The notes: generated by a model not told the origin, from the sequence alone. Shown: positions 7,601-64,000, numbered from the stretch's first letter. The stretch is DNA of 64,000 nucleotides from Convolutriloba macropyga (GCF_964194025.1 NC_134476.1:29512001-29576000), one strand, 5' to 3'. Translations and numbers: made by a program.

Positions 7601-10600
7601 TATGACCTCTGCCAATTAGCTTTGCGTTTTAACTTAGTAGAGCTTATTGACTATTTTCTGCCTGTTTAGGCGAATACCTATGCATTGCAAACATAGATGT
7701 GTCTTGTTGGCCATAGATTAGTGGACACTATAATGGAGCTATGGCAATATAAATTTGGTGGTTGGGGTATAATAGGAAAGTCCGAAAAGGGGCATGTTTC
7801 CTGGGTCAACGATATTAGGAGAATGTAGTTGACCGGAGTCTTGTTTAGACACAAAGATCGCTGGCCGAGCTCTTCTCTGAGCTCTCATTCAAACAACCAG
7901 GCCTGCAAACGTCCTTCACGACTAGTGCCAATACCCAAAAGTCCCTAATCAAGAACGGTGATAAACTCCTGAGTGCAATTCGATTCTTTATCGATTCCCT
8001 AGACACCCTTGTTAACAAAACTATCCAAGATACAGTTCTAACTGTCAAGCAGTATCAATCAGCCAGGGTTCAGTTCGATGCATACCGCAATGAAAACGAG
8101 CAACAAGCACTCCAAAGCCCAACAATGGGCTGTACTCCAAATGGTGCTGGCGTTTCGTCCCCAGCGACTGGGACAATTCCGAACTCGGCCTCGGATAATA
8201 ATTTGGAACAACATAAGTCGAGATTTGAGTTGCTGCATAGAGACGTTGACATAAAATTGAAGCTTCTGGATGAGAACAAAGTGAGAAATGTTCAAATGTT
8301 TTGTTGCTATCTTGCAGAGGTATTTCTCTGGAAGTATCATGACGTCTGGGTATCAATTCACGCTCAATTTTGTTACTGTAGTCATTAGTGAGATTTTCGC
8401 TCAGTAGGATTTTTGTGGTCGTCTAGATGAGAGCGTGTGATTATGGTTCTTTAGACTGTGGTCTCAACTTAGTTTGGGGTCTTGTTATTTGCATAATTTC
8501 CTCATTGGAATCTTAAATGCCATCATGTTTAATTGCCCTCAAACAAAGTTTAGCAATTATTAATTGCTCTCAAACGAAGTTTGTAGCAATTATATTAGTC
8601 ATGTCGGTTTTATGCAATTTTTCGCTTGATCGATCCCCCCCCCCCACCCAGATCAGCCCTCCCCTCACTTCACCCTATCCCGCAATCTCCACCCCTGTAT
8701 ATCGTTCTGACCATAAGGGCCACATGCAGCCAAAAACCGCCCCCACACCACTGTTGCCCCTTATGAGCCCCCCGGTGCACCCCCTCCCGCTGCGCTCACC
8801 TCACGCCCCTTCCATTAAACTAAAGCTAGCCTCACTATACCTTGGCTAGCTAGTGACAAAACCAACCGCTCGCCGGTCGTTTGAGAGCAATTCGCCCGAC
8901 GTTTGTCGCTTATGTTATTAGCCCTGTTGGTCTTTTTTGTGCGCTTTCTGCCTTGACCTATCTGACTATTATTTCGTCTGACTCATTTGACCTATCGTCC
9001 TCATTAAGTTCTCTTGGAGACTTTCAGCTCCCTAGTCTCCCAGATATGAGATTCACAGAAACTGTATTGGAGACGTATACTCATGTTGTGAAGGGCGGTT
9101 CTTGGAGTTAAACCCTCCCCACACCCCACACACACTTCACCCCTCTGTCACATCCGTCCCCCTTTCTTCATACCCCCAATCCCCACCCATGAACATTGTT
9201 GCCCCCCTCTGTTGTAGCAGTTCCATTAAATAGCTCTAAATTATCAAGGATAGTTGCAAGGGATAATGAAGGGTTGCAAAACTGCTGAAAAAGCGTTTTA
9301 AGGGCAAAATATTAAAAAAGCTCAAAATGGCTCCGAAAAAAAGTCTTATATTTTTGGTCAGATGATCAAAAACGTCACCAAAGGCACTAATACTGGTTTA
9401 CTTAGTTGGAAAAAAAACACCTTTGTTTATTAAAGTTGAGTTAAAACTACAAACAAACTGCTTTGAAAAGACCACACGTAATTGAAATCCGCTCGCTCAG
9501 CGAAAGCTCTTTCATACCTACTTTTCGCGCTCTCTCTCCCTCTCAGAATAATGAATGAAAGAAAACAACCCTAAAAACAACTAAATTTTTGACTTTTGTC
9601 CATCAGATGGACCTAAACACTTTTCTTAAGGTGAGCAATTTTACTGCCTCGAAAAAGCAGCCTCTAATATAGAAGCCACCGACTTAAAAATTTTATCGCT
9701 ATTACTCTTCTTCGAGTCGTATAAATTCGCTTCAAGGCTGGTGGTTTTTTGGCCGCATGTGGTAATTGTGCTTTGATTTTAATTATTTTAATATCCGAAA
9801 AACGATAGCACGGGGATGTTATTGGTCTTTTCTTGTTTTATACAATTCAAAGAGCGACGCTGTCAATTGTATTGGGAAGCTGTCGTTTTTTTAATAGCCG
9901 CGAAGCGATAGGGTCATTATTTTGGATATCGTGGTTTTTTTAAATTCGTCGTCTCCATCGATTATTCTTGCGACCATTGATTTTTTCAATTTCAGTGACT
10001 TGTACTGCTTTGCAGTTAAAATTGTGTGCGTGACGTCATTTGTTCTTTTAGGTCAATTGCGTGACTTACCTCCTTGAGAAAAAATGACTTCTGAACTCAC
10101 TTAAAGAACTTTGAATTTTATGAACATTTACTTGTTAAAGGTCAATAGTGTGCATCTAAGTAGTGCCAAACGTATGTGCCCTAATTCTTGAGTATAAGAG
10201 TCTTGATTTTTTTATTTAATTTTAATTTTAGTTCAAAATTTTAATTTTGAAAAGCTCTGAGGATTTTTTCTATTTAGAGCGTTTGTGTCTCATATAATGA
10301 CGGTCCGAATCTAACCCAAAAAGTCTAGTGGTCTATTAAAGGACTGGTGGTCAATCCGTCTATCTTATTTTTTTAGTTGTTTCAATTATACAGAAGGCCA
10401 CATGCATCTATAGCGGCTATTTTCTGGCAATCTGCGGGCTATGTTGATAACTGTTCACACATTTTCATGATTTTTGATGTTAAATTGAAGTGATGTTTTT
10501 GTCACGCCGAAACAGGAAGTGGAGCGAAAAAGCGAGTGATTTTGTGGCGTGAAATTGTTCACTGTGATTCTAAAAGGGAGTGGGGAAAGCGGTGTTTGAA

Positions 10601-16519: not shown

Positions 16520-17472
16520 TCGGATTTTTTGTCTTCTGATATCGGAACAAGATCTTTTTACGGAATTAACAGAGAAGCATATCACTCACTGCAGTAGAAG
16601 CAGTCGTCAAAAGCTTTGTGAAACCGTTCTAGTAGTGGAGAATAGGCATAGTTTTTAACTTCATTTTTTGACCTGCAAAAATCAGTTTTGAAGCTATGCG
16701 CGCAACAAGTGATAGCACTTCCAGCAGAACCATTCGTTGAATACCTCAATGACTCGATTTACCTGTTTTGCTCCCGATCTAACGAATCTCTGCATCTGAG
16801 CTGCAGCTCAAACTAGAGTGGATTCCTGGATGTTAGAGTTGTCTAACAGGACTTGATTTTACCGGACGGATTGAAGTCAGAACCCAGACCCCAGGACACG
16901 AAAGAAGCCTTCTAGTTAGAATCTGTGACGTCCTGGAAGTATTTTTTATCATATATTAAGTGATAAACTATGTAATTGCTGTCTATTCTTTTTCTTCCAT
17001 CTTCGAAATTTCGAAAGAGCTAACATTTATTACAAAAGTCTGAAGTTATTATTCATCTTTACGCTATGTCAACATTGATTTAGTTGAAATAATAACTCCC
17101 GGACTGCTACTGAAAAAATACTGACTACCTTAAATCCTTGATTGAAAGAGTAAAAAATTAAATATTGCAAAGCTAACCATCTTTAAAAGTAGCTATAAAG
17201 TGGCCTAAAGTGTTTCTTTTGCGATTACTATTTTGTTTGGGTGCCGGGACACATCACATCAGGTTTTCGGAAACTGTATTGACGCTCAAACTTAGTTAGT
17301 TACATACAATTATTACAGTAAATTAATAACGGCAATAAATTAATAAGCAGCCCGATCTTTAGCTGACATGAAATCATTCTTTAGTGATATCCAAACTAAC
17401 TGTACTGTGAGAAGCGAATAAATTGATTAAGTGTAATAATTTGCTTTAAGTAATTATTAAGAGTAATAATAA

Positions 17473-17864
17473 TGTGACGTTGTCTAAAGCAACAATTGAA
17501 CATTTCGAATAGTATTCCAAGAAACTATCGTTAAAGACACACTACGTACTATTTATTTAAAGTAAACACTGAACCTCACCAATTGTAAACAACTAAATTA
17601 GAGAACAGATTTATCAGCTAAAGTTAAGTTGCCATTATATCGTAACTGTAAACTTGAAAGAATTGAATAAAAGGTATAAGAACAGATACTCACTTTATAT
17701 TAATTTATCAGCTAGCTTGAAGATTGAAGGTTGTCGATCCACGCTTCTGGAGAACATCCTAAACTCAACATCTTCGTGCAGTAACCGCATGCAAGAAAGA
17801 CCACAAAACAACTGGAAGCAAGCATTACCAACCTGCAACAATACATAAATCTTGTGGCATCACA
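17473..17864 (+). repeat. 5' LTR (392 bp)
   Basis: tgtgacgttgtc...ggcatcaca; 7 substitutions versus the 3' LTR by manual comparison; contains aataaa. Confidence 0.97.
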
Positions 17865-17879
17865 TGGTGACAGGAAGGA
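17865..17879 (+). promoter_or_regulatory. Primer binding site (cognate tRNA not assigned)
   Basis: TGGTGACAGGAAGGA directly after the LTR-terminal CA; TGG is complementary to the tRNA CCA end. Confidence 0.75.
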
Positions 17880-18351
17880 AGACAACCACCATTTCTTCAT
17901 CGGCTGAAATATGGAAAAGCAGTATCTGGTGGTTTGACAGCGAAAGAAGAACAATCCTATGGAATTTGAAAGTGCTAGAAAGAAAGGCCTACAGCCAGCA
18001 GCGAACAGGTTCGTCAAAAACCACTATGTGCAATAAATTTATGATGTTTTATGAGCGCTCAGTCAAATATCAGTCAAAACTGAAATCATTTTTTTGAAAA
18101 TGAATGATGATCATGGTAAATCATTTAAAGGTGCTATTTTCTCTATTTTCATATCATCTAGCCTCTAAAATTCTGTTTTTTTGACCCTAACTCAAACAAT
18201 TAGTCTTGTTTTTGAATTCTTAGTCTCGTTAGTCTGACTTTCCACTGTCTTTTGTTGTTGTCTTCAATTTTTTTGTCTCTTAACTATAAGCGTTATAACT
18301 TTCTAAAAACAGTTTTAAGTAAGATTTTGAAAACAAATTTTCTAACGTAAA

Positions 18352-19635
18352 ATGGCACAACCAAATATTGCCTTGAAACATTACGGGGGAACTGAGAAAG
18401 AAAGTTTTCGTGAATTTGAGAGGTTACTTAGAAGTATTTTGGCAGTAGGAGGAGTTGATCCAGGTCAACATGCAAATTTTCTCCAGCTTCATCTTAAAGA
18501 TGCAGCCTTACGATTTTTTCAGTTATTGCCTGAGGCAACCAGAGCTAATTTTGAAAACAGTCTCACTGCTTTGAGAGACCATTTTTGTAACCCTCAGCTT
18601 CGTAAAATACACCTAATTAAGTTTGAAAGTGTTAAATTTGATCCAAAAACTGATTCACCGGAAAATTTCTTGGTAACGCTCCGAAATTTGGCAGTAAGAG
18701 CTTATCCTGACCCAATACCACATGTTGTTCCCGCAGCTGACCCAGCATTAGATGCAGTAGCAGAGGCCGCAAGAATAGCTGCATCTAACGCCGTAAATGC
18801 ACAGAACTTACTTTTTGCACAGACAGAGCGAGATCATCAAATAAGAAGACTTTTTGTTAAAAGTATGCCAAGTTGGCTTAGAGCAAAACTTTTGGAACAA
18901 CCGGATAACGCTACCATTGATGATCTTTGTCTTTTTGCTCGAAAACAAATTGCCATCCATAGTTTGTGTAAAATGGACGATTATGCTGACGCAGCTTTTA
19001 ACGAAGTCAGCTCAAGTACTATTTATGAGAATTTAGTAAACGCACTGTCAAAAATGTCCCAGATTCAAGAAAGTATGCAAAATCAGGTCAGCGAGTTAAG
19101 TAGACAATTTGAGGAACAGAGAGTTAGTTCAGAGAATCAGCAAGATAGAGGTCGTGAAAGAAATTTTAACAACTACAGAGGAAATAATTACAGAGGAAAT
19201 AACTATCGCGGAAATAATAATAATAGAGGAAATTACCGAGGGAATAACAACAGAGGAAACAATAATTATAGAGGAAATAACTTTCGAGGACGAAGAAATT
19301 ACCGAGGCAGAGGTAATCAAAATTTTAATCGAGGAGGAGGACAATTTACAAATCATGAATACCGAGGACCCGTTAATCATGATTATTTCAATAACCAGAG
19401 TTCGTCTAACCCTCCAATGCAGAGCTCATCTGCTCCACCCGCCCCTCAGGGGTCAGTCCAAGTTACCCCACCCCAAAATCCACAACCCCCTGACCAAAGT
19501 GGTGTGACAGGCTATACCAAAATTGTCTGTCATCTATGTGGTTTTCCAAACCACTTTGCTTCCGAATGCTACCTCAACACTAATCGAAAAAGAGGAGGAG
19601 TTAGTTTTCCATTCAGAAGAAACCCAAAAAACTAA
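18352..19635 (+). CDS. gag: Gag, 427 aa, intact: capsid-like region, coiled coil, NYRG repeats, CCHC zinc knuckle
   Basis: Retrotransposon-gag-like N-terminus (LHLKDAALRFF..L..HF), CHLCGFPNHFASEC is a C-x2-C-x4-H-x4-C knuckle; ends on an A-AAA-AAC slippery heptamer (19626-19632). Confidence 0.92.
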   Translation: MAQPNIALKHYGGTEKESFREFERLLRSILAVGGVDPGQHANFLQLHLKDAALRFFQLLPEATRANFENSLTALRDHFCNPQLRKIHLIKFESVKFDPKTDSPENFLVTLRNLAVRAYPDPIPHVVPAADPALDAVAEAARIAASNAVNAQNLLFAQTERDHQIRRLFVKSMPSWLRAKLLEQPDNATIDDLCLFARKQIAIHSLCKMDDYADAAFNEVSSSTIYENLVNALSKMSQIQESMQNQVSELSRQFEEQRVSSENQQDRGRERNFNNYRGNNYRGNNYRGNNNNRGNYRGNNNRGNNNYRGNNFRGRRNYRGRGNQNFNRGGGQFTNHEYRGPVNHDYFNNQSSSNPPMQSSSAPPAPQGSVQVTPPQNPQPPDQSGVTGYTKIVCHLCGFPNHFASECYLNTNRKRGGVSFPFRRNPKN

Positions 19636-19701
19636 AAGAGCCACATGCTATTGAAGCCAATCATCTTTTTTTAGAATAATTTTCACTAGAACCAAAATGT
19701 A

Positions 19702-20110
19702 ATGAATGGTTTTGATAATGCATGTAATTATGATAATTCTCTTGACAGTTCTTCTGATGAGGAACTTGATAACAAACTTTGTGCCGTTATACCTCTTGAA
19801 GGTGATGTCCTTAACTACGTCCGAATTGTTTTTGATGAAAAAATTCGACGTCGTGCATTAATCGATACTGGATCGTGTGCCAATGCCATTCCGAAAGCCT
19901 TATTAAATAATTTTGAAAAGTTAAATGTCAAGTTTGAAATCAAAAAACCGTGTTTTGAACAAGTTAAGCTAGCACCGGGACAGCCAGTTGACATTGAATA
20001 TGCAGTGGAAGTAGAATTTTGTCTTGGAAAAAACAAATGTTTGGACGAATTATTAGTTTTACCCAAAATGAACTGTTATTCTGGGTAACCCTTTTTTCCA
20101 AAAGAACAAG
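19702..20110 (+). pseudogene. pol: Retropepsin aspartic protease, frameshifted
   Basis: RALIDTGS active-site motif; the ILGNPFF motif continues in another frame at about 20075-20100. Confidence 0.88.
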
Positions 20111-21472
20111 TTGTGGATCTGTCCCGCTTTTAAATTACTCAAATTACCTGATATTACTTATCAATTGAATGAAATCAAACCTAAGTTTGATAGACGACAA
20201 TTTTTGCCTAAACTGAAGAAAATTCCAGTTTATCTCGCCAAAAAACATGTTTTGAAACATGCACAATCATTAGGAGTTGTTGAACGCTCCCACGGTGCCC
20301 TAAAACGTATTCTCAAGCTGAATACCAATGAGCAAAGGGCAAATTGGTATAAATATGTTCCTCTCGCTACTTATATCCATAACACCTCATTTTATTCATC
20401 AATTGGTCGTACACCTTCTTCGATTTTTCATGGAAGTGAACCAATCAAACCTCTTGATGTTCGTTTGAGTAATAGATCATTGAAAACAATGGATCCAAGA
20501 TCAGACTTTGTTATTGAACTGCAAGATGCCATGCAGGAAAAATTTGCTCACAATAAATCGAGGTTAATAAGTAGCTACCAACAGTACCGCAAGTACTATG
20601 ACCAAAAATCAGAAGCCAATCCACTGAAGCTTCATCAATTTTGTCTCGTCTTAAACCCTAAGCTCACAAACCAAAATGATTTTGCAAGCAAGTCATTGCA
20701 AGTTTGGCTACCACTATATCGTGTTGAGAAAGTTCTTACTAATTCGAACTATTTAATACGAAAAGTAGGAACCCCATTCACTCAATGTGTCCACCGAATT
20801 CGCTTGAGGCCATATGAGCCAAGCGAGCCGCCAGTAGACTTTGACAATATTGATCCAAGCCAATTTGTGCCTGAGCCAGTCTTGGGTAAATTCAGGCAAA
20901 AACCTGAACTTTTCGATAATGAGTTTCCTAAATTGTTCGATCACTCGTTCATTGACGATGTACCATCTCAAACCCCCCAACAGCTGGAAGATGAACCTCC
21001 AGCTACCACAACTTTTGTGTTCCCATTAGCCGCCCCTCATGTTCCAGCCCCAATTCATGGTCCAGCTCCGCCCCCACCCCCAATGCCGCCTCCAGCTCCA
21101 GTTCCGATGGTTCTTCCGTCACCCGCTCCACCGGTTGCTCCCCCAGTACAACCAGTAGAACAAGCAGAAGATATTAATGAAAATCATCCTCAACAAGACC
21201 AGGAGGATCAAATATTTCTGGATCTAAGAGAACCACCGGAGCCGCAAGCGCCATTGGAAGTGATAGAGGAGGAACCAGAACCAGCTCAACAGAAAGTTCA
21301 ACCGGAGTTCGAACGAGAACCTGAACCGCCTAACCCGTTCATGTTTTTTCCCGAACCAGACCCCCCAGTTATTCAACAGCCGTCTCCGAATGAAGTCCGG
21401 AGACCACAACCCCGTTTTGAATTACCCCCCCAGTCCAATTCAACCACGAACGCCGCGAAGGGTTTCATTTAA
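20111..21472 (+). pseudogene. pol: Deleted pol: protease linker fused in frame to C-terminal half of integrase, GPY/F-SH3-like domain and Pro/Glu-rich tail
   Basis: HAQSLGVVERSHGALKRIL (E of DDE), W..YVPLATYIHNTSF.SSIG.TP..IFHG, WLPLYRVEKV..SNYLIRK..VHRIRLRPY; no RT YxDD, RNaseH, HHCC or first DD motifs present. Confidence 0.88.
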
Positions 21473-21707
21473 CCCTACTGTGTCCACTAGTACTGAGATA
21501 ATTGAGACTCCGATACCACAACCTGGTCCTAGTCAACAATCCATGAGAACTATTGATGGTCCTTTTCCGCTTCCGTTTTCTCGATTTTCGAAAGAACAAA
21601 AGCGCGAAGCGATTTAAAAGTCTACACAAGATCCAACAAGACGACTTGCCTTTGGCCGAGGGCCATCTCGTGCTACTAAATTTGACAAAAAAGAGAGTCA
21701 ACGTGTA

Positions 21708-22313
21708 ATGGAGGAGCGCAAAGAACAACAACAGCAAACGTCATCGACTTCTACTAGCGCGCCTCAATCTCCAAAGCAACCATCTCCGCTACTTGATCTG
21801 ATACCAGGATCTCGTCAACGATCACGAATGAATGCCGAGCGTGAGAACGAACGCCGGAAGTCGCGTGGCGAATCAAATGCAATTTTTGGAGATAATTTTC
21901 ATCTTTACTTTAAACAAGAAGACATTAAAAAATGTCCATTTTCAGTGGCACAAGCCGTCTCAGCAGAGTCTCCGATCAAAAATCTTATAGATTTTAATGC
22001 TATAAACCCCCCTGATGTCCAATCAATCAACCCTAACTTTCAAGTAGGATCTCTAGTGTCTATTTTTGATCCACAATCCAATCGTTTTGTTTATAACTTA
22101 GTCACAAAATCTAAAGACGCTCACAAAGCATCTTACTCATGTCTTGAACAATGTCTCCAAAGTTTCAAAAAGCAGATTGATGATTTCAATATAACCAGCT
22201 TAGCCCTACCCCAGCTTGAATGCTTTGAGAATGGCCTTCACTGGCCCAAAGTCTGTCAAATTATTTTAAAAATTTTCAAAAATTCTAACCTAAATCTTTA
22301 TAGTTATGTTTAA
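21708..22313 (+). CDS. TARG1/OARD1 (Poa1p-class) macrodomain, probably the original C-terminus of pol
   Basis: RFVYNLVTKSKDAHKASYSCLEQCLQSFK..ITSLALPQLECFENGLHWPKVCQIILKIF aligns with TARG1 [58 protein letters not shown]; same frame as ORF 21390-21617 across one TAA. Confidence 0.82.
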   Translation: MEERKEQQQQTSSTSTSAPQSPKQPSPLLDLIPGSRQRSRMNAERENERRKSRGESNAIFGDNFHLYFKQEDIKKCPFSVAQAVSAESPIKNLIDFNAINPPDVQSINPNFQVGSLVSIFDPQSNRFVYNLVTKSKDAHKASYSCLEQCLQSFKKQIDDFNITSLALPQLECFENGLHWPKVCQIILKIFKNSNLNLYSYV

Positions 22314-22949
22314 ACATCATAAAAATCTAAAAAATTCGAAATTCCAAAAACATTAGCTTAGCTGTTTAGTTTTTCTAAATATTATTATCTACCACCCTAA
22401 TATCTTACCCATTCACCATTTCATTGTATTTACTATTATTTAACCAGAATTTAGACTTTGTTTGTGAAAGTCGCAAAATTTACCCCATAAAAATTGTGTT
22501 GAAAAATTGTTTTTCAGCGAAAACTCACTCTAGTATTACTTCTTTTATGTATTTTTGGCTATTCCTATCGATATCCTAATTACTATCACAGTTTCCTAAC
22601 ATTTCTTTAAGTTTTGATATAAAAACCTAAAAATTTTTCAAGGTCATTTTTCAAGGTCAAGATGACTTCTGACAAACTTTCCTTGCATCTATTTTCTATT
22701 TAACACCATTGCTATCGATTGTGACGCATTTCAATGAGATTGGAGGAAAAAATTTTTTCATCTTTTTTTCTACAAAGTCCGAAAATTACTAAATTTTTCC
22801 AAAATTTAAGATTTTTTCGCAATAACAGTTTATAAATGTTTCGGTTAAAAATGAGTTATGCGAAACCTTTTTAAAATTGTTTAAACCTATTGTCGTGTTA
22901 CTTGATTGTAAAATGAATCTGTATGACAAAAATTTTATTCATTTTGTGA

Positions 22950-24404
22950 TCACAATAGAATAATGAAATGTTCTTTTTGCTGAGTTTTCCTAACTTTTTT
23001 TGACTTTTCTGCGTCCTCACAGTCCCTATCACTCCTCAAACGCTTTGTAGCGCGAGGAAGGATTATACCATTGGCTTTACTAGCATCGTATGCGCTAGTA
23101 GATCTAAATTGTATAAAAATTAATCTTTCATTAGATCTTAAGAAACTTTCTCTTTTTCCAAACAATTATTTTGCACACAAAATATTCATAAACTAACTCT
23201 TGATCTGGAAATTCAACCAATGGCTCGCAGTGGTAACCCTGAGGTTCCTCAAAATGCTCGCAGACCAGCAGAAAAGCTGCTTGCTTGCGCTCTTGATCGT
23301 AAATCTCCCAAGGAAAGCGCACCCAAGCACTGATATCGGTGTGATACTCATAGTATACACATATATCCGTTTTCTGAAGCATGGCCATGCCAAGGAACTA
23401 AACATTTAGTTTGTTATTTTGGTTGTTAGTCAATTACTTAAAACAGCAAAAATAAAAAGTGGTTATTACCCAATAATCGCCTACGGGAAGTGGATTGTCG
23501 CGGTAATGAACAATTTCAAACGGATTAGGAGTATACCCGAGTACAGTTTCACAATGCGTTTTAAACTCCTCTCCCAGCATGTGATTTCCACATTGAAACC
23601 GTAGGGTATTACATTTTGCTTTGCGCAGACGTTCTGCTGTTCCATTGGTTTCTAAAGGAAAAACATTTAAATTCTTCGGAATAATCTGTAATATTCTAAA
23701 TGTGTGGAAGAAAAAAAATCAATTTGACCACGTGCTTGATTTTTGGCCGGTCAGCAAGTAAGACAGACTTGAAAAGATGCACTGGCCATACTCGTCTGCA
23801 AGTTTTTTGTTCCCAGTAATATCGGGAAAACCCAGAGTACAGAATCCTACAAATTTATCGCAGGGGTCATTTTTCCATCGCAGCTCGAGTTCACTGCACA
23901 ATTCCCTTTTTCTCCTTTCACCAACACTAGAGACAGTTATTGATTTTACAGCCTTGAATTCCTTGTAACACTTGTCACACCCGCGTATATACCTATAAAA
24001 TTATGCTTGTCATGTTGATATGTAAATTACAAAACGCACACAAAAACGATTCAAACAGTTGAGTTGATGATATGATGGTTCGTATACTTACTCAGTGACA
24101 GTCCGTCAGTGAAACTGGGAAGTGTAAACTCTTTTTCCATTAAAGCATCATACAGTAGCTTTTCTTGATAAATGTGCTTTCCCGACTTACTGACGTGTAC
24201 AGCCTTTAAACAATCTTCAGCTTGCTTGAAGGTGGGAACGTAAAATGAGCCCAACATTAAATTCTTTTCCTCCTCGAGAGAAAATTTAGAGAATTTTTCG
24301 TCCCAATACCGTGTGTTGTCGGATGTTATAGCCTTTTCGCGTTTGTTAAAACGTTTCCCCATTTGTAAATATCTCACTATCTTACTATACACTACTTCTT
24401 CCAT
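22950..24404 (-). CDS. Antisense spliced gene inside the LTR element: HHCC zinc-binding domain + OTU-like cysteine protease + basic NLS-like tail; predicted exons 24404-24088, 23992-~23730, ~23690-23470, 23397-23198, 23103-22950
   Basis: H..H in AVHVSKSGKH plus YIRGCDKC across intron 1; OTU-like DEYGQCIFSSLSYLLTG, MAMLQKTDICVY, W.RFP, FLL..YHCEPL; phase-consistent GT-AG introns 23469-23398 (gactaac branch point) and 23197-23104; intron 1 donor and intron 2 boundaries uncertain. Confidence 0.7.
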
Positions 24405-24606
24405 ATTAAATCTGAAAATTTTTTTTGTTTTTGCATTATTGTTTTGACATTTTTTGACTGAACGCCCAAGAATAGAAAAAACATTCTCTGAGCTAGTAAG
24501 TCGAGTAAATTAAAGTAGGAGTCAATCTAAAACAAAGGCTACAGCCTACAAATACCTAACACAAGGTAAAAAGTTTAGTCTTTAGTTTGAGTTAGTAAAC
24601 TAATGC

Positions 24607-24883
24607 TCATTCTCGCCTAAAGCATTTCTTGTAAATTGCATAGCCCACCCATGCAAGCCCAAACACAGAAGAAATAATAAGAATTATGTCAAGCACTGGA
24701 GCAGATTCCTCCCCACTGGGAGACACACACAGAGGAGGCAGCTCCTGGCTCCAAATACGAGTGCCATCAGGCACCTCCACAAAACTCCCATTGCCGCAAC
24801 AATAGATTTTGTGTGCGCAATTTTTTCTCAGTACAAGCAAAAGCGTGACTGATCAAAATGGCGACAAAACAAAGTTTCAACAT
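24607..24883 (-). CDS. Antisense small type I membrane protein (about 91 aa) with one homopolymer frameshift
   Basis: ATG at 24883 gives signal peptide MLKLCFVAILISHAFA-CTEK; removing one A of an A6 run joins NCAHKIYCCGNGS..LC..VLDIILIISSVFGLAWVGYAIY-KKCFRRE (TM plus basic stop-transfer); ttttcag acceptor 10 nt upstream of the ATG. Confidence 0.6.
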
Positions 24884-25070
24884 GATTGCAAAACTGAAAA
24901 CAATTCAAAATAACTTACCAAGAAACAGAATATTTAGTTTTACCTGAAGTCTCTCAACTCTTAAAAAGAGGAGTGACAGAAATTTAAATCTAAAACACAA
25001 AACATTGGTTAATACACATCAAAAAACATTGAAGAATTGACACCTAAAAACCTAACCTAAACCTAGTCCT

Positions 25071-27385
25071 ATGTTTAGAAATACGGTGAGGTCCAAAGTT
25101 TTACTTATATTCTGTATTCTTATTGAAGCGACGTACTCATCGGAAGTTATTGATAAGTTCGATTCAGTTTTACGCAAGGGAATATTTTTTAACGAAGAGC
25201 CGAAAATTTTACTTGCCGAGAAATTTGTCCCAGTTCAGTTTCTTGTACCATTTCCAACATATAATTTCACGCTGAAGCCTGAACTCACAAATTTATTGAA
25301 AAATCTTAATGATCGTTGGAAATTTCCATCTGTATCATGTTCACTCGACTTCGCAACTAATTTTGCATCAAACATATCATCATTTGACATCAATTGGATG
25401 CAAACCAAACTAGAATTGGAAGTCGACCAATCAAAGATTGATGTCGAATTGATTCGAAACGAAACCGCTACCTTCCTACAAACAACAATTTCAAACGGAA
25501 GATCAAAACGTGGAGCTCACGTTGGAATGTTGGCCATGGCAGGCATCGGACTTTTCGGTTCAGGCATTGCCATGGGAAGTTCTGGAGGATGCGGTCTAGC
25601 TGGTGTTTTCGGAACATGCCAAGACAAGGCCCAGACTTATGCAGCTAACATAGAACATCTGGGTACGATCACATCCATGCTCACATGTTTCGTTTCAAGA
25701 ATGAATACCGTGAATAATGAAAAATTCTTTGTAGTGAAGAACAAGCTTGAAGACATCGAGAACAATCAAAAACAGATGGAGGAGACGCAGAATAAAAACT
25801 GGGAAATAATCGAACGACAATTTGAAATAATCGACCAAAACTTCCACATTTTGAGAAACTGCGACCAAATGTTATTTTCTAATCAGCAATTGAACTTTAA
25901 CTACGACACAGCAGCCTCGTTATTATCACTTCTATTCGCTGACATAAAAGCTTACCGATCAGCTTTGTACACATACAGGATGAATGTCTTAAACGCGATC
26001 CCGACGATGCTTCAACATCTGCCAATTTCTTTAATTCCAAAGAAATCGCTGCTCGCGATAGTGAACTCTGTCGGTGATGAACTACATCGATCAGGAGAAA
26101 GACTCTCGCTTGCAATTCCAACTAACACTGATTTACTGTCGTACCACGACGCCAAGCTTCTTCGTGACGTTATTACAGTGGAAGAAGGGTTGATTCTCAC
26201 CCTTGCCATACCATTAGCGTCTCGAACGACAGCTTTCTCGGTCTACCGAGCCCATGTTATACCAATGCCTCAGTCAGGTCCTCGGATGGCCATTAGATGG
26301 GTCGTTGAAGCCCCATATTTGGCTATATCTGAATCGAAAGAGGATACAATGACGCTCTCGCAGGAACAGTATGAAGCATGTATTGGCTCGACTAGATATA
26401 ACCAGACCATGGCCTCTTACAGGAACAGACCCTCCTGCTTAGCAACCTTGCGTCTCGGATCTACACTCCGAGCAACTGAAACTTGCGACACGGAAGTCTT
26501 CTACCTACCAACCGAAGTTCAAGCAACTAACCTTGGTTATGGAATTTGGCTTTTGTTGTCGGCAACGGACAATTACGACATAACGAGTTGAGTCTTGAGC
26601 CCGCCTTAAGAGAGGAAACCCGCATCTTAAAGGGATGTAAGATTTGTCTTATAACCGTGAAATGCCAATTCCAACTTAATGTCGGGAAAAACGTGAAAAT
26701 TCGTCCGGATCTTGAAGTTTGTGACTCCATGAATGCGACGTTCATCGATGTTCAGCTACCTGACCTTTTGTCAGCACTTCTTGGAACAGTGCCAGATATT
26801 AGCGAGCTACCATTCTTTGACTCCAAAACCTCAGCAGGAGTTGAACTCATCAAGAAAGTTCGAGCAGAATTAGCACAAAGTCCAAAAATTTCAACGAGTG
26901 ACGACCTGATCAAAATAGCTCAACCAATTACAATGGACATGAGTTCTCTCAACCCATCTTTCAAGTCCTACTTTAATGAGTATGTACCCGCAAAGGTATC
27001 ATTATCGCTCACTATCGTTGTTTTCATTGGAAGTATGATCTTACACCTGATCATGTATCTTTATCACAAATGCAAAGTAATTCGGAAATATGTCCCATCA
27101 GTTTTCAAGTTTGGTGTCGACATGCCTAATGTTCGACCAGTCATGTTCATTTACCCTCCCACGACACCCAAACAACCCAACGAAATAATACAAAAACACA
27201 GTGATTCACATGTTTTTGTCATGATGTCACGCATTGATGGACGTTTATGTCCACCATATGAAGACAAGGATCCTAACAATCCGCTTTTGATATCTCAGAT
27301 CCACTTGAAATCAGACGGAAATTACCATTTGAAAACATCCCAAAACAATATAAATCAGAACACCCCAAACAACAGACAACCCTGA
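25071..27385 (+). pseudogene. env: Envelope / class I viral fusion glycoprotein (baculovirus F, errantivirus env, paramyxovirus F-like layout), split by one frameshift near 26580
   Basis: Signal peptide VLLIFCILIEATYS, furin site RSKR followed by Gly-rich hydrophobic fusion peptide GAHVGMLAMAGIGLFGSGIAMG, heptad region, Cys-rich region, C-terminal TM VSLSLTIVVFIGSMILHLIMYLY in ORF 26546-27385, N-glycosylation sequons. Confidence 0.88.
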
Positions 27386-27992
27386 AGGTCTGCTTCATCA
27401 ATAACTGTCTCCATTGATCCTAATCATCAAAATGATTCACGACTACACTCGCAACATGTCTCCCTACAAACCATCCCGAATGAACAACTAACTATCCAAA
27501 CTGATCAACATTCACCAGCAGGTGAAAACTCCGAATCTAACCTCTAGTGCAGTGAGCTGTAAAATAAAATGTAGTATACTCTCTGACGAACACCTGCACC
27601 TTTTCCGATACAATTCTCTACAACCAGCAGCTGTCGATTAACGCAACGATCAAATATGCGATTCTGACTTGGCTCTAACACACACCAATTTTGACCCACC
27701 AAAATTACTAGTTAACTCTATGAACAACACTCGACAATTTCGATCCCCACAACTTTTACTTCAATGATATTCCCATAACCGACTTCTAGTTTTCTACAAC
27801 ATGTATCACTGTTACAATATGTATTCTATCAATGGCTCCTGGCATGATGGCTCGGCTTCAATTTTGACTATTTCTTATCTCAAATGATGCTATTCTCAAT
27901 TATCTTCTCTACGTTTTATATCTCGACAATATTTATTGCTTTGGCACAAAAATTTTGGACAATAAAATTTTTATGTGTCCGGAAGCTTCTCT

Positions 27993-28004
27993 AAAGGAGG
28001 GGAG
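27993..28004 (+). promoter_or_regulatory. Polypurine tract
   Basis: aaaggaggggag directly before the 3' LTR. Confidence 0.9.
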
Positions 28005-28396
28005 TGTGACGTTGTCTAAAGCAACATTTGAACATTTCAAATTGTATTCCAAGAAACTATCGTTAAAGACACACTACGTACTATTTATTTAAAGTAAACA
28101 CTGAACCTCACCAATTGTAAACAACTAAATTAGAGAACAGATTTATCAGCTAAAGTTAAGTTGCTATTATACCGTAACTGTAAACTTGAAAGAATTGAAT
28201 AAAAGGTATAAGAACAGATACTCACTTTATATTAATTTATCAGCTAGCTTGAAGATTGAAGGTTGTCGATCCACGCTTCTGGAGAACATCCTAAACTCAA
28301 CATCTTCGTGCAGTAACCGCATGCAAGAAAGACCACAAAACAACTAGAAACAAGCATTACCAACCTGCAACAATACATAAATCTTGTGGCATCACA
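28005..28396 (+). repeat. 3' LTR (392 bp)
   Basis: Direct repeat of 17473-17864 followed by AATAA TSD. Confidence 0.97.
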
Positions 28397-30321
28397 AATA
28401 ACTCAAAGAAAACCTCGTCCATCGATTGTAATCTATAAAAAACTAACCATGAATGCACGCGTAGTGGAAGCGGGAAGGAAGACTTTACCATTTTAGACAG
28501 TTATTTCCTGGTTACATAGCAGTTGTTGCAGTCAATCCTGGACAAATAAACTTCTTACAATTACGCCTTTGTGTCAACGCTTTACGGTGTCTTTAGATTT
28601 TGCCTAAATCCACTAGAAAGTTTATGGACCGGATCTTTGATGCTCCGAAAAAACCACTCTGTAATTTACAAGTCCAGGAGGTACTGGTACTCCAGCTAGA
28701 TTAAGAACATTTTATTTTGAAGTAAGACACATCAGAAAACTTTGTGAACTCAGAGCGAAAAGCAATTTGCGCGTACACAAATTCGAGTCTCCCATCGATA
28801 GAACCACTGGATTCGGCAGCATCTGACGCAGTGATGGGAAGGACACGTTTTGCTAGAGAGACAGCGAACAGACAAAGAATTAATGTAACTGTTTACCACA
28901 GAAATGAACATGTGAAACGCCTGTTTATTTCTGTGATCCCTATGACTGGTTGGTTGCAATCAAAACTGATGGAAAGCCAACAGCTATACCAATTGAAGAT
29001 TTGTGCAATCTTGCGAGACGGCAGATTTCATTTCGAGTGTGTTGCAGGAAAGATGATCATCCAGTTGATTCAAAGAAATCAATGAAGCAGTATCCGAGAA
29101 TCTAATTAATGTTCTGCCAAAAGTGACAAGCTCAACAAGCAGCCATTTGTTGAGCTTATGTGATCTTTGTTTGTATTGTGTTAACCTAGTTTGTGAGGTG
29201 ATAAAACGGATAATATTACATCTTTTCATAGGCAGTGGAGTTTTCTCTGATTTTTAATCTTACATACCTATTGTATCGTTTCTCGTACAGGGAAGGCTAT
29301 AATCTTATTTTTGCATCCGGAAATAAGTTTTTATTCCAAGATCTTTGTGCGATCAGCTGTCATAGTAACCACGGTTAACCCTCTCAGTTTAATGGTCATG
29401 CGAACCCGTTTTTTTAAATCAACAAACCTTTCGACAGGTGGAGTTTTGGCGCTAATCAGTCCCTAGCTTGAAGCCTTATAACAACAAAATACAAAGTTCC
29501 GCAAAAGTCTAGGCGCAGTAAAATGATCTTTCTTTTAACTTTTCTGTGCCAATTATAGAAACAATGAACTACTTACTGGGTTTGAATCTTTTTAAAACAT
29601 ATTTTTTGTGAGGAGCCTCAATTAATTAAATAGCCTTATGAGCCATCAATTTCAAATTACATCGCCCATCCATATTTGTTAATTGGAAAACAGCTCGCCT
29701 TGTTTTTCATTATTTTTTTTCTATTCCTGGAAATAGATTAGTAAAATTACGTCAAAGTAAAGTTCTGTTTTTTTTTGTTTTTGTGCGGACAACAGTCAGA
29801 TTTTTGATGGTTCTTTTTGATATAGTAATTTTGGATTTTTTTACCACTCTCTGGTTACATTACAATAAAGGGCATACTTTCTGTTTTCGTCAGATTTTCT
29901 TGTCTGGAGATCTGGAGAGCGAACAGCTGAAACTGTTCAATGTTTGTAGATTTTTAAATCAGATCAGACTATTACCAATCATAGATTGTGACTACAGTAA
30001 ACAATGTAACCCCTCGTCTCTTTGTTGTCCACACTTCTGGTTCATGGTTAAGGAAATTGAATTTGACTTCTACATGTGCTCATATATTGATAAAGTTCAT
30101 TTTGAAATCAATTGTTAATATTTAAATTGTATCTATTTAATTGAATGAATCGCTTGCGAAGTTTTTTCTATCCTGTTTAATTGACCGTTATGTTCCCCGG
30201 GTTTTGGAGCATACTGAGTGGTTTAGGTATTCAAAATTGATTTGGGACTTCAAAATAATTTGTTAAGTTTGTTCTTATTTTTTCAGCGTAACAAGCAGAA
30301 ATTTCAAAATCTATTTTGAAA

Positions 30322-31317
30322 ATGCAACCTCTGTGGAACGCGTTTAATGGGCTGACATCTCGAATTGAGAGTCTTGTTTCCGAAAACAAGCTTTTGAAAA
30401 AGCGCAATCAAACTTTGGAAACTCAATTGCTACACTCTTTAAACATGGAACGAACCCAAAGCGAGAACAAGGATAGAGTTATATCTGATCTTCACAGAAA
30501 AGTCGAACAGAGAAAGGCGGAATTGAGTAATGTTAAAGTTGCCATTGATCAAGAAAAGGTTACACTTAATAGCGAAAAACATATCTTGGAAAGCCAGAAA
30601 ACAGCTTTAGAGGACGAAATAGAATTGTTTAAGAAAAAATTACACAAATCCGATTTGAAGATCCTCGAATTGCAGAACGCGAACAACGCTTTGAAAGCTG
30701 AACAAAATCAGCAGAAGGTTGAGAGGAATGATTTGATTATGGAAATTGGCAATATTAAAAAGTTGATCAAAAATTTGCAGACAATTAACAGAATTAACGA
30801 GGAGACGATCACAAAGGTCAGAACCAATATATCTGAATTGACTGACGCAAACCAGCGAATATCTGACGTAGCTAAAAACTCAGAATTGGAGCGAGAGAAA
30901 ACGGCGTTGGAACTAAAAGCTGCGGTAAAATCGACGAAACTGCTAGAAAGTTCTAGAAAAGCTCTGGAACGGGAATTAAACGATGTAAAGCATGAGGCAG
31001 CATCAGAGAAAAATGTGCTTGAACTAAAAATTGCTGGTCTTGAAAAGTGTTCTGCGGAGTCAAACGAGAAACTGAAGAAGGTTAATGTTGAAAACGATGC
31101 CCTTGAAGCACAGTTGCTACAAACATTTGACACTATTAGATCGATTAAACTGAAGGTTCCCTTCGAGAACATCCAACAGAGTCAGCCTAAGTGTCAAGAT
31201 GAAGCAAAGAACAATTTTGAGGTGAAATGCGAAGATAGTGGAGATGATTGTGTGCAAGTTTGTGGACCTAGTGATAAGGCTACTTTACACCCAAGTCCTG
31301 CTATGAATGTCATGTAG
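30322..31317 (+). CDS. Uncharacterised coiled-coil protein (about 331 aa, or a large exon)
   Basis: 1-kb open frame rich in E/K/L/N heptads; first ATG 30322 with in-frame stop at 30289; tttcag acceptor at 30286. Confidence 0.75.
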   Translation: MQPLWNAFNGLTSRIESLVSENKLLKKRNQTLETQLLHSLNMERTQSENKDRVISDLHRKVEQRKAELSNVKVAIDQEKVTLNSEKHILESQKTALEDEIELFKKKLHKSDLKILELQNANNALKAEQNQQKVERNDLIMEIGNIKKLIKNLQTINRINEETITKVRTNISELTDANQRISDVAKNSELEREKTALELKAAVKSTKLLESSRKALERELNDVKHEAASEKNVLELKIAGLEKCSAESNEKLKKVNVENDALEAQLLQTFDTIRSIKLKVPFENIQQSQPKCQDEAKNNFEVKCEDSGDDCVQVCGPSDKATLHPSPAMNVM

Positions 31318-44362: not shown

Positions 44363-44481
44363 TTGTTTCCTGGTCAACTAAAGAGAGCTGTGGGTCTATA
44401 GAGCTGTGGGTCAACGGACAATGTGCGCAGTTATCCTCTAACATCTGGTTCAATTTTTCAGACTGAGATGTAAGGATCGCT

Positions 44482-47400
44482 ATGACTGACGCTGGCGATA
44501 TGAATGGTACCGCCGAACACACTGAGTCCGCTGCAGTTGCTGAACCAGAAAGCAAGTTGAAGACACCAGTTGAAGAAGTGGAAGCAAACGACGACAACGT
44601 AGAACAAGAAAAGAAGTCCGATTCAGTACTCGAGACAAATGACAAAAGCGAGGCGGAAGTAGTTGCTGAAAACATTGAAGCTAAATCAGAAGCTGTAAAA
44701 GAAACCGAAAATTCTGAACCTCCAATTTTGTCTCAACCAACTGCATTACCACTGTTGCCACCAGAAAAATCTCCTGTAATAGAACAATTCAGTGCTAATG
44801 GAGTGACCCTAGCTAATGTTACTAAACCTGTCCCTTCCACCCGGTCCAACTCTGGCAATGAAGATATGCTGACAATAGATGAAGGCATAACTCCAGAACC
44901 AGAAACGAAAACAACCCCTATTGATAGTGAACCTGTAATGAAGCCAATATCTGTAGATACCTCTATCTCTGCTAAAGACCCTATTGCATCGGTTACAACC
45001 CGAAATTCGGCTTCCCGGGTCTCCGCTTCTAAGACTGCGCCCAAATCAGCTCCTGCAGATAGCATTGCTTCTTCGAGATCCAAACGTCCAAGAGTTCCTG
45101 TCAGACATTTTGAGTTTGAGGACGTTGTCGAGGAACCAGAGCCGCCCGAGCAACCAATATCTCTACCTTCGTCTCAAACGTCTACCAAAAATAGTGCTCC
45201 AAAAATTGTGAAGGGAAAAAAAGCTAGCTCCGCGTCAACGACGCCAAAAGAAGCAATGTTCGATAAGGGAGACTACTGTACTGTTCGATCTGACCTGGTT
45301 GGAGAGAATTTCTACCTATGTTTACTCTGTCAAGATGTCTATGAGAACTCAAAAGCGTTGATACCGATTCGATGGCTTGAGATTGAGAAAACTCCAAACC
45401 AGTACAAGTGGTCGTTTCCTGACAAAATTGACAAAGGTTGTATTTTGACAAACGTTAGTGTTGAAAGTTTGGGCAAAGACAGAATCATATTGCCAAATAG
45501 TGAAATAATGAGGTCAATTTATGTATTGAAGAAGTCAATTCAGTCCGAAAAGGGCGAAAAAGTGACCCTGGAGTTACCACCCAAAACGGCAGAAGGGAAA
45601 GAGGAGGCGCCTGAGATGGTTTCTGAGACTAAAAAAGCAACCAATAAACGTGGCGGCGGCAAAGTCCAATCTTCGCAAAGAACTCCGACTGCTCTGAAAC
45701 GTACTCGGGAACCGAGTATTAGTTCTACGGAAAGTAGCGAGCAATTTTCAGATTTGAGCGACGAGTACGTTGTTCCACAATCTCGGAGACGAGGAGGCGC
45801 GAGAGGTGGAAGCAGTGCTACTGTTACTAGGCAGGGATCTGGTCGAACAACTACTAGGAATCAAACTTCAGGTCCAACATCAGCAAAGCAGCCATCCAGA
45901 GGTCATCAATTGGAGCTTGACGAAGATTACAATCCTTCTGTGGAAAGAAAAACGAGAGGCAGTAACCGTATAACCCCAACCAAAGCAGTCAGCCCAGGAA
46001 ATTCTGGGTTTGACCCAGATAAAACTTTATCACCCACCAAGAGTCCAGTGCGGACCGTAAACTACACTTCTCGTATTAAAATTGACCCTAATGATCAGTT
46101 TTTGGACGAAAAATATATCTTTGATGAAACTGATCTCAATTTCAAAGCCAAGCAGATCATTCGGTTGGTTTCATTTGGTGACCTAGATTTAATTAAACGG
46201 GCGCTGAGCGATCCAAAATTAGATTCTGTATGTTGCGGACGAAGCAAAGATTGTCTAGACGGACCATTTGAAACTGCTGCTCAAAATGATGATGTAACAA
46301 GCCTACTTCTTCTGTTAGACAAAAATATGGAGCTAGCGAAAAAAGCTTTTACTAGTTCCTGCCTCTTAAAGGACAAACTTTTAACGGAAGACATCAATTT
46401 GAAGTGTCGATCGTTTCCTTATGACAGTTTTTTTGAAGAATTGATGCGAACGGAACCTGAGCCGTTCAAGCTAATAGATTTCTTAGTTTCCAAAGGATAC
46501 GTCGAAACCCTGATCAAATTTGTTCATCTTGCTTTGAAAAACGGCAATCAAAAGTCGGCCCTGCATGTCTTAAAAGTCGGGAATTCTACAAACAATGAAA
46601 ATATATTGAATGTGTTGGACGAATTTAATGAATCAAAATTGGAATCAATTCTAGAATTAGCCAGCTATCAGCAAAGTTTGGGTCTGTACCTAATACATGC
46701 TGCTGCTGCTTCTGAAAACGGCCGATATTTGTCACAATTATTAGACAGAAATCAGGAGCTGATCAGCGTCTGTGACTGTTATGGTTGGTACTGTTTCCAT
46801 TACGCGGCTGCCTGCAAAAGCGCTACTAATATTGATATCTTATGTAATCGCATTGGAAACGTCATCAACTCTTACGTAACCTCAGATTCTGGCTTGACAC
46901 CATTGATGATTGCCTGCCAGCTGAACAGGGTTAAAAATGTCCAAACTTTGCTGAACGTTGCGGGGTCTATCCAGCAGCAAAAATTATTGGAAACCGCCAA
47001 TTTTGATGGAAAAACTTGTCTGCATTTAGCAGCAGAGGCCGGAAATGTGGAAGTTTTGAACATGATTTTGCCGCTATGCTTTGATGTCAACGTAAAAACT
47101 GGTACTAAACACGGTGATATGACAGCCTTGATGTTATCTGCTAGCAAAGGTCATTTCAAGAGCTGCGAAATACTACTAAACAAGAAATGCGATGTTAATA
47201 TTGAGGATGTAAATGGACGCACTGCATTGACTTTTGCGATACTGAATGGATTTCAAAATATTGTCAGTTTGCTTATATGCAGCGGAGCTGTACCGACTAA
47301 AGTTGACATTAATGGCAACAGTTTGGTGCATTATGCCACTTGTTATGGATGGTCACATTGTCTTACCTTGCTGATCGATATCGGGCTATCGCTAAGTTTA

Positions 47401-63400: not shown

Positions 63401-64000
63401 GTTTTAAAGATTTAGAAGCTATTAGTTTTCATAAAATACAAGTGATATTTGGATTTTGCCTGTTTCGTTGCTTTGTTATTTACTGCCATTAGTTGTTAAT
63501 TAGGTTACCGATTTGAATAGAAATGAAACGGTTTTAACTAATTTGATACCAATTGTTCCGAATAAAAATTAACTAGTTTTTGATTTTAGTTTTCTCTTTT
63601 ATCAAACTTTTTTCTATTAATCAGCCTCATCACGGACAGCTCTTAGTAGCTCCTCTATGAATCACAATTTGATCAATATGTTGGTTTTTATTGATATCTT
63701 ACGGTTTTCGCAACTTTGACACACTTACGGTCAAATTTTTTTTGCCACTTTGATATTGAGGTGTTTTGTCACTTTATTTCGTTGATGATAGATCTTATGG
63801 GTCATTTTTGCACGCTTTTTTGAGTTAACCTGTCTTTCAATACAAAACTAAAGTTGATGGATTTCACAATACTTGTGTTCCAAATTTATTTAATACTTTT
63901 CTTTAGAATTTGCGGGTTCTGGTAGTTTTCTTTGTTCCGTCACTTAGTGGCACCAATGACATGTTTTTAGGTTCTCTAATTAAGAATTCTTGAGTATATT
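57265..64000. repeat. Diverged array of about 1.7-kb AT-rich units (about 58380-60030, 61540-63280, 63280-end) with a shared leader (about 57270 and 61255)
   Basis: ctaatgttttt(c)aagatttag at about 59081, 61658 and 63396; atattagacaatctcttatctagaattgtt at about 58551 and 62907; aagtcaatgccgcacgtgaaaactaagagacta at about 57327 and 61296. Confidence 0.8.
57418..57466. repeat. (GA)n microsatellite
   Basis: About 24 GA units. Confidence 0.95.

Follow-up and report, generated by a model that had tools for sequence, protein, structure and literature searches.

A Ty3/Gypsy-type long terminal repeat (LTR) element spans positions 17473–28396 of a 64,000-nucleotide stretch of the Convolutriloba macropyga genome (GCF_964194025.1 NC_134476.1:29512001-29576000), referred to here as the window. 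Between pol and the envelope gene (env), the element and its relatives carry a cassette of two antisense genes, which is under purifying selection and has been exchanged between lineages. Gene 1 encodes a small membrane glycoprotein. Gene 2 appears to be a spliced gene that combines an OTU domain with an integrase-like N-terminus or, in sister families, is replaced by a JmjC gene. The most likely function of gene 2 is anti-silencing, i.e., freeing the element of repressive chromatin marks, to which we assign a probability of about 0.5. The lineage is best read as an errantivirus-type, env-bearing Ty3/Gypsy element (Metaviridae), old yet recently mobile. The copy in the window inserted recently but is dead: it is decayed and non-autonomous, with lesions in pol, the macrodomain linker, both antisense genes, and env. 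The biology must be read from its relatives.

At least 59 env matches were scored in the genome. By tblastn, 60 env-bearing stretches (window included) fall into 35 of OTU type, 19 of JmjC type, one with only exon 1 of gene 2, and five with neither, while none has both; these stretches are non-independent, since many are near-copies and 15 were picked via cassette-linked DNA. The five comprise one with a divergent JmjC-like open reading frame (ORF), two with exon-1 traces, one deleted sibling, and one with gene 1 only. Twenty loci were chosen solely for their env similarity; of these, 11 are OTU-type, seven JmjC-type, one divergent JmjC-like, and one exon-1 only. Of 14 further loci, chosen for weak matches to exon 1 or JmjC, 13 have the cassette next to a far more diverged env, and the order and orientation of the cassette are unchanged across diverged families. 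Two distant env lineages (L097:1272-2646 and L099:4913-5377) have extra sense-strand ORFs between cassette and env, without a Pfam match. A near sibling of the window copy (L018, 95–97% identity) lacks pol and cassette owing to a single deletion and has extra LTR-containing pieces on both sides; it was considered as a refutation of a stable cassette and rejected, because the deletion takes pol too.

LTR identities of 97.7–100% were found in six relatives, and near-identical full cassettes occur nine times in one family and five times in another. Between families, the proportion of synonymous differences in the OTU exons (pS) is 0.68–0.87, near saturation, against a nonsynonymous proportion (pN) of 0.32–0.47. 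In one unsaturated pair, the ratio of nonsynonymous to synonymous rates (dN/dS) is 0.05 for the JmjC gene and 0.21 for both the membrane protein and the Pol macrodomain. Within young families the ratios are 0.3–1, as expected for copies decaying after insertion. Thus, two outcomes that a preliminary description of this DNA had named as adverse did not occur: the cassette is not absent from siblings, being found even in diverged families, and purifying selection on the accessory ORFs is not lacking, with pN below pS in the OTU exons and the low JmjC ratio.

The cassette diverges much faster than integrase and env. One pair of elements shares 98% integrase and 93% env identity, yet only 27–48% in the macrodomain and OTU exons, and a JmjC-type and an OTU-type element have integrases that are 94% identical. 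The env tree (46 rows, with 14 rows of short matches left out and some long, unsure rows included) needs 3–4 changes for JmjC, of which at least two are forced by supported branches. A constant membrane gene next to a fast-evolving, swapped nuclear eraser looks like a conflict locus.

The supposed antisense OTU protease ORF of the preliminary description appears to be a five-exon gene on the minus strand, with four introns at conserved places and phases and an extra N-terminal domain; its OTU identity is upheld by a profile match to Pfam-verified OTU domains of the genome. Predicted exon 1 (24092..24404) holds a putative integrase N-terminal-extension and the HH half of a candidate HHCC domain, its frame being disturbed at the end in the window copy. 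Exon 2 (23736..23992) contributes the CxxC that would complete the zinc site, a pre-OTU segment common to Helitron OTUs, and the catalytic Cys; its donor is non-canonical in the window copy. Exons 3 (23470..23651) and 4 (23198..23397) encode the helical part of the OTU and its distal half with the catalytic His, respectively, and exon 5 (22950..23103) a short basic tail resembling a nuclear localization signal, whose basic motif is present in eight loci. The product would comprise ~340 residues.

The antisense ORF pieces are interrupted at the same places in every family. The predicted introns are mostly 57–138 nt long, AT-rich, and bounded by GT/AG, with phases 2, 1, 0, and 2. In six of six families, the exons are stop-free with a GC content of 0.40–0.44, and the introns contain stops and have a GC content of 0.23–0.34. 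Two junctions were set by protein position rather than by letters; of 29 loci, 24 have GT at donor 2 and 22 have AG at acceptor 3. Intron versus exon identity is uninformative (0.52 vs. 0.56). An acceptor-like AG also lies 5–14 nt ahead of the start codons of both antisense genes (31 of 40 loci for gene 1). An antisense gene in a retroelement keeps its introns, as the packaged strand does not present them and retrotransposition leaves them in. Since the packaged RNA is the sense strand, the cassette would behave like a cellular gene, spliced and driven by an internal promoter near the env start.

A profile of cassette exons 2–4 matches a profile of 11 OTU domains from the same genome with a probability of 97.4 (E 1e-11). 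Seven real rows score 15.5–31.4 bits, compared with at most 2.6 for 700 shuffles. The catalytic Cys is retained in seven of seven rows shown and the His in six of seven, in OTU motif order. The reference OTUs sit in Helitrons where tested, and share with the cassette a segment ahead of the catalytic Cys. Such Helitrons, of ~2500 residues with an N-terminal OTU domain, are seen at L081, L085, and related loci, several of them clustered on contig C10.

The predicted structure of exon 1 reached a predicted local distance difference test score (pLDDT) of 84. A fold search of 48,161 chains returned the foamy-virus integrase N-terminus as the best match (Z 5.8, root-mean-square deviation 3.1, 74 aligned residues), followed by the Ty3 integrase N-terminus (Z 5.3, deviation 4.4, 90 aligned) and then by a Z of 3.9; Foldseek ranked Ty3 second, at a non-significant level. 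No longer homologue of exon 1 was found among 8000 candidates, and Pfam gave no match for the H2C2 zinc finger. The model suggests that the gene 2 N-terminus folds like an integrase N-terminal domain. Gene 2 may derive from a Ginger1-like transposase without its core, or from an integrase N-terminus fused to a Helitron OTU. There is no room for a DDE core between CxxC and OTU. A Ginger1 donor was sought among 25 of the 27 OTU matches of the genome and rejected: those with enough context are Helitron-type (Pfam-confirmed at four loci) or host-gene-like, and none is Ginger1.

In sister families, the gene 2 slot is occupied by a short, stand-alone JmjC gene that is also predicted to be spliced. 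All eight of its PDB matches are PHF8, PHF2, or KDM7A, with a best E of only 4.5e-7, and the metal ligands (His-x-Asp/Glu...His) are retained. PHF8, PHF2, and KDM7A remove repressive histone marks. From these likenesses, the cargo is probably KDM7/PHF8-like, with predicted demethylase activity. Its homologues come from only one source type, apparently the same host. In a BEL/Pao-type element (L110:422-3136, plus strand; DUF1759 and DUF5641), a JmjC-like ORF lies in antisense orientation downstream of the integrase (L110:3736-4656, minus strand; E 1e-8 to the cargo profile, no Pfam match), which suggests that the JmjC cargo may cross LTR superfamilies. Tandem arrays with a spacing of 1–2.5 kb are formed by JmjC-like sequences in G000 at C2:27.10 Mb, C11:25.44-25.46 Mb, and C15:20.72 Mb, and by exon-1-like sequences at C7:53.29-53.31 Mb; these are offered either as satellites or as host silencing clusters derived from the cassette.

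Gene 1 (24607..24883, minus strand; frameshifted in the window copy) encodes a type I membrane glycoprotein of small size (~95 residues), common to OTU-type and JmjC-type elements. In relatives it has a signal peptide, a Cys-rich ectodomain of ~45 residues with a sequon, and one transmembrane segment; the Cys cluster is present in most, and Cys, Asn-Gly, Trp, and Cys are invariant in the ectodomain. Between the gene 1 and env starts lies a conserved non-coding stretch (24892..25027, minus strand) with splice-site-like motifs and 72–79% DNA identity to nine other places, a candidate for a shared control region.

The C-terminal end of Pol (21618..22313, plus strand) contains a TARG1/OARD1-type macrodomain at about 21882-22310, which a frame break and a stop codon separate from the integrase in the window copy. 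In relatives, integrase, a proline-rich linker, and macrodomain form one continuous frame. The macrodomain, counted previously among three accessory genes, is the Pol C-terminus and no separate gene. The window macrodomain matches Pfam Macro at E 0.0012, below the cut-off; a nine-row profile matches TARG1/OARD1 at E 8e-22, and none of its 12 PDB matches is a viral macrodomain. Its Atlas neighbours belong to clusters in which phages are abundant and 14% of the members have Macro. In TARG1, the Lys/Asp pair is catalytic and the glycine-rich loops serve in binding. The Lys is retained in seven of nine rows, and the Asp and glycine loop in one deep-branching row only, not in the window clade, where hydrolase activity is therefore doubtful. 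A deep-branching JmjC-type element (L054:3718-4146) has a macrodomain with both glycine loop and Asp.

The env gene (25071..27385, plus strand; frameshift near 26590) is of F type, with signal peptide, furin site, fusion peptide, heptads, and a transmembrane segment. The window env itself gave no Baculo_F match in the Pfam scan. A relative's env exceeds the Baculo_F cut-off (24.7 vs. 24.1 bits), with matches in 4 of 26 rows, and a search of the PDB returned the fusion protein 9w4c at E 1e-5; on these two results, the third ORF is an F-type env, as in errantiviruses. A predicted env structure was unusable (pLDDT 39). Env relatives are widespread (2007 proteins at E up to 0.001, genomic context absent), and none with genomic context was found in metagenome or viral contigs.

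Anti-silencing is favored because the OTU with its integrase-like zinc domain and the KDM7-like JmjC would both remove marks from chromatin proteins. Gene 1 would be the constant partner, probably working with Env at the membrane. Gene 2 would supply an interchangeable enzyme that acts in the nucleus and strips a mark from proteins: either an OTU deubiquitinase, to which an integrase-like zinc domain and a basic tail are joined, or a JmjC demethylase that is KDM7/PHF8-like. This enzyme would keep the provirus or integration complex clear of repressive chromatin marks. The integrase-like domain would give element-directed targeting.

Several points weigh against this reading. Direct OTU searches were empty (nothing above the PF02338 cut-off in Pfam, no PDB match) for a gene that is intron-split and diverged, and two of the seven OTU rows have weak scores, 15.5 and 20 bits, against the profile of Helitron OTUs. 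The structural scores of exon 1 (Z under 8; Foldseek E 1.8–4.7) permit a common arrangement; the two His of exon 1 and the exon 2 CxxC can be aligned to the HHCC motif of the element itself, at a profile probability of only 5.7%, and the Atlas gave no informative match. Donors 1, 3, and 4 and acceptors 1, 2, and 4 were partly picked by their letters, several being missed or misplaced by the script. Four sequence runs gave no transcript evidence either way, being contigs of even coverage in which no joint coincides with a predicted intron. Gene 1 homologues come from only one source type, apparently the same host, with none outside. OTUs and JmjC proteins have many non-chromatin substrates, and slot sharing is the sole link between the two enzymes. 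A single joint in the sequence runs (84 nt, non-splice ends) was rejected as a splice junction, as it fits a genomic deletion copy.

Anti-silencing is preferred over three other explanations. It is rather unlikely that gene 2 regulates replication of the element, its integrase-like domain docking on integrase or LTR ends and the OTU shielding the integration complex from ubiquitin-driven degradation or, alternatively, the protein acting as a dominant-negative limit on copy number. The resemblance of exon 1 plus CxxC to an integrase N-terminal region without catalytic core fits such a role, which leaves unexplained, however, why a JmjC gene without an integrase-like domain sits in the slot of 19 of 60 stretches. 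The preliminary description instead saw an invertebrate env-bearing lineage with its own accessory set against ADP-ribose and ubiquitin signalling. The stable set is real, whereas the counter-defence role is unsupported. That the set counters innate immune signalling (ADP-ribosylation, ubiquitin chains) during cell-to-cell spread, as in RNA viruses, is unlikely. An F-type env does imply an extracellular stage, the OTU catalytic residues and, in most rows, the TARG1 Lys are kept, and the fast divergence and exchange of the cassette suit an arms race of any kind. However, the comparison with RNA-virus modules is weak, as the macrodomain is TARG1-type with degenerate loops (glycine loop and catalytic Asp lost in eight of nine rows) and the OTU matches the Helitron OTUs of the genome; moreover, the OTU carries a basic tail and an integrase-like domain of the DNA/protein-binding kind, and the enzyme that takes its place in sister families resembles histone demethylases. 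Three additions to the preliminary description, namely the introns, the JmjC alternative, and the N-terminal domain resembling that of integrases, point to chromatin rather than signalling.

A cassette that is a functionless passenger, made of relics of nested Ginger1- or Helitron-type insertions, is highly improbable. Zinc finger, OTU, and GT-AG introns do outline a Ginger1 transposase minus its core, as far as that transposase is described in PMC2836005; the OTUs of the same genome's Helitrons match, and one sibling that lacks both pol and cassette has moved or persisted. This would account for the origin of the cassette, not for its maintenance, and is largely refuted by purifying selection at saturated synonymous distance, by the conserved splice sites and catalytic residues, and by retention of the cassette in very distant env lineages. 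Returning to anti-silencing, we tentatively propose a wider picture, which is possible rather than probable: the antisense genes would form a modular operon with introns, whose interchangeable enzyme, either a deubiquitinase guided by the integrase domain or a demethylase acting on repressive marks, erases chromatin marks on the element itself. Such an operon would amount to an enzymatic anti-silencing system encoded by transposons of animals and swapped between lineages in the manner of a viral immune-evasion locus.

All parts first noted in the window are present: an LTR-bounded unit with target-site duplication, gag, protease, an integrase tail with macrodomain, an F-like env, and the antisense cassette. 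The 5′ LTR (17473..17864, 392 nt) and 3′ LTR (28005..28396), both on the plus strand, are identical at 385 of 392 positions (seven differences, no gaps) and have TG...CA termini. They are flanked by a 5-bp duplication of AT-rich target sequence (17468..17472 and 28397-28401, no strand); 5-bp duplications were found in two relatives too. On the plus strand, a primer-binding site (17865..17882; first 9 nt common to the relatives compared) is followed by gag (18352..19635), an open frame of 427 residues with one CCHC knuckle (zf-CCHC E 0.07) and 73% DNA identity to gag of relatives. The aspartic protease region of pol (19690..20088, plus strand; 46% to a relative's Pol) is broken in frame at its end; in relatives, this region gives weak gag-asp_proteas matches. 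The pol remnant (20072..21472, plus strand; Integrase_p58_C E 0.005) joins the post-protease linker to the distal part of the integrase core, which is followed by the C-terminal domain and a proline-rich linker. A deletion of ~3 kb near 20245-20255, removing reverse transcriptase (RT), RNase H (RH), and the N-terminal part of integrase (IN), is inferred because the gag-integrase spacing is 1.9 kb in the window copy versus 4.9 kb in relatives, and because relatives retain RT, RNase H, and an H2C2 domain in the Ty3/Gypsy order, protease (PR)-RT-RH-IN. A polypurine tract (27994..28004, plus strand) precedes the 3′ LTR, and no long inverted repeat was seen in the element. The LTRs, primer-binding site, polypurine tract, and duplication, together with the pol order of relatives, are those of Ty3/Gypsy elements.

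Elsewhere in the window, an arfaptin-like host gene exon (7849-8388, plus strand) and a coiled-coil-like open frame of 341 residues without a Pfam match (30292-31317, plus strand) were found. A single open frame of 2471 residues (44467-51882, plus strand) has ankyrin repeats, WGR, and a PARP catalytic domain; it is intron-free, lies 16 kb from the element, and is probably unrelated. Duplicated units of 1.2–2.7 kb form arrays at 53034-55264 and 58950-64000, with 60–91% identity.

Each part of the element has a precedent; the literature yielded no match for the combination, for the introns, or for the OTU/JmjC exchange, and the element is a variant of env-bearing Ty3/Gypsy elements. No described family with the same layout was found in the literature, a search that did not extend to Repbase, GyDB, and Dfam entries or subscription papers, which may hold an equivalent, annotated or not. 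The closest known system, as described in the available text, is that of the 'ancient errantiviruses' (Chary and Hayashi, PMC13524379), with LTRs, gag-pol-env order, PR-RT-RH-IN (in the relatives here), an F-type env, and young multi-copy families. The main text of that survey contains no occurrence of macro, antisense, accessory, or OTU, whereas here a Pol-terminal macrodomain and an antisense two-gene cassette, predicted to be spliced, are present between pol and env. OTU domains are known in Ginger1 and Helitron transposons: in the account consulted (Bao et al., PMC2836005), Ginger1 combines an H2C2 zinc finger with a C-terminal OTU and 1–4 GT-AG introns, and OTUs occur in animal Helitrons, as in the present genome. 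Unlike Ginger1, gene 2 has no DDE core, shows no terminal inverted repeats, and is antisense inside an LTR element.

Antisense ORFs of the plant Retand, Grande, and RIRE2 elements differ, according to the portions available (PMC11963269, PMC7264820), in that there is no env and the proteins are of unknown function; the text of the review does not mention introns. Bdelloid LTR elements also have exchangeable enzyme cargo, but as far as their report (PMC5408684) goes, the cargo (GDSL, DEDDy) is ORF3 and is not described as antisense or spliced. The Oikopleura Tor elements share an internal promoter near env, with no such cassette in the accessible description (PMC4402516). Macrodomains are known in fish endogenous retroviruses: epsilon-like elements have a macrodomain ORF in an LTR retroelement but, on the excerpt available (PMC4977317), belong to Retroviridae. 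VANDAL transposons likewise carry an accessory gene, VANC, whose proposed role is to relieve their own family of silencing, although they are plant DNA transposons and VANC is non-enzymatic as reviewed; that 2019 review (PMC6719617), in the part consulted, names three cases of anti-silencing by transposons, each of them from plants, and calls this scarcity surprising.

Collectively, the dozens of related elements in this one animal genome constitute a natural experiment, with one backbone, two alternative enzymes for one slot, and both young and old copies. They indicate that Metaviridae can attain a complex-retrovirus organization. Antisense orientation would let a retroelement retain a fully spliced gene, and ORF-based surveys of env-bearing elements would miss such genes.

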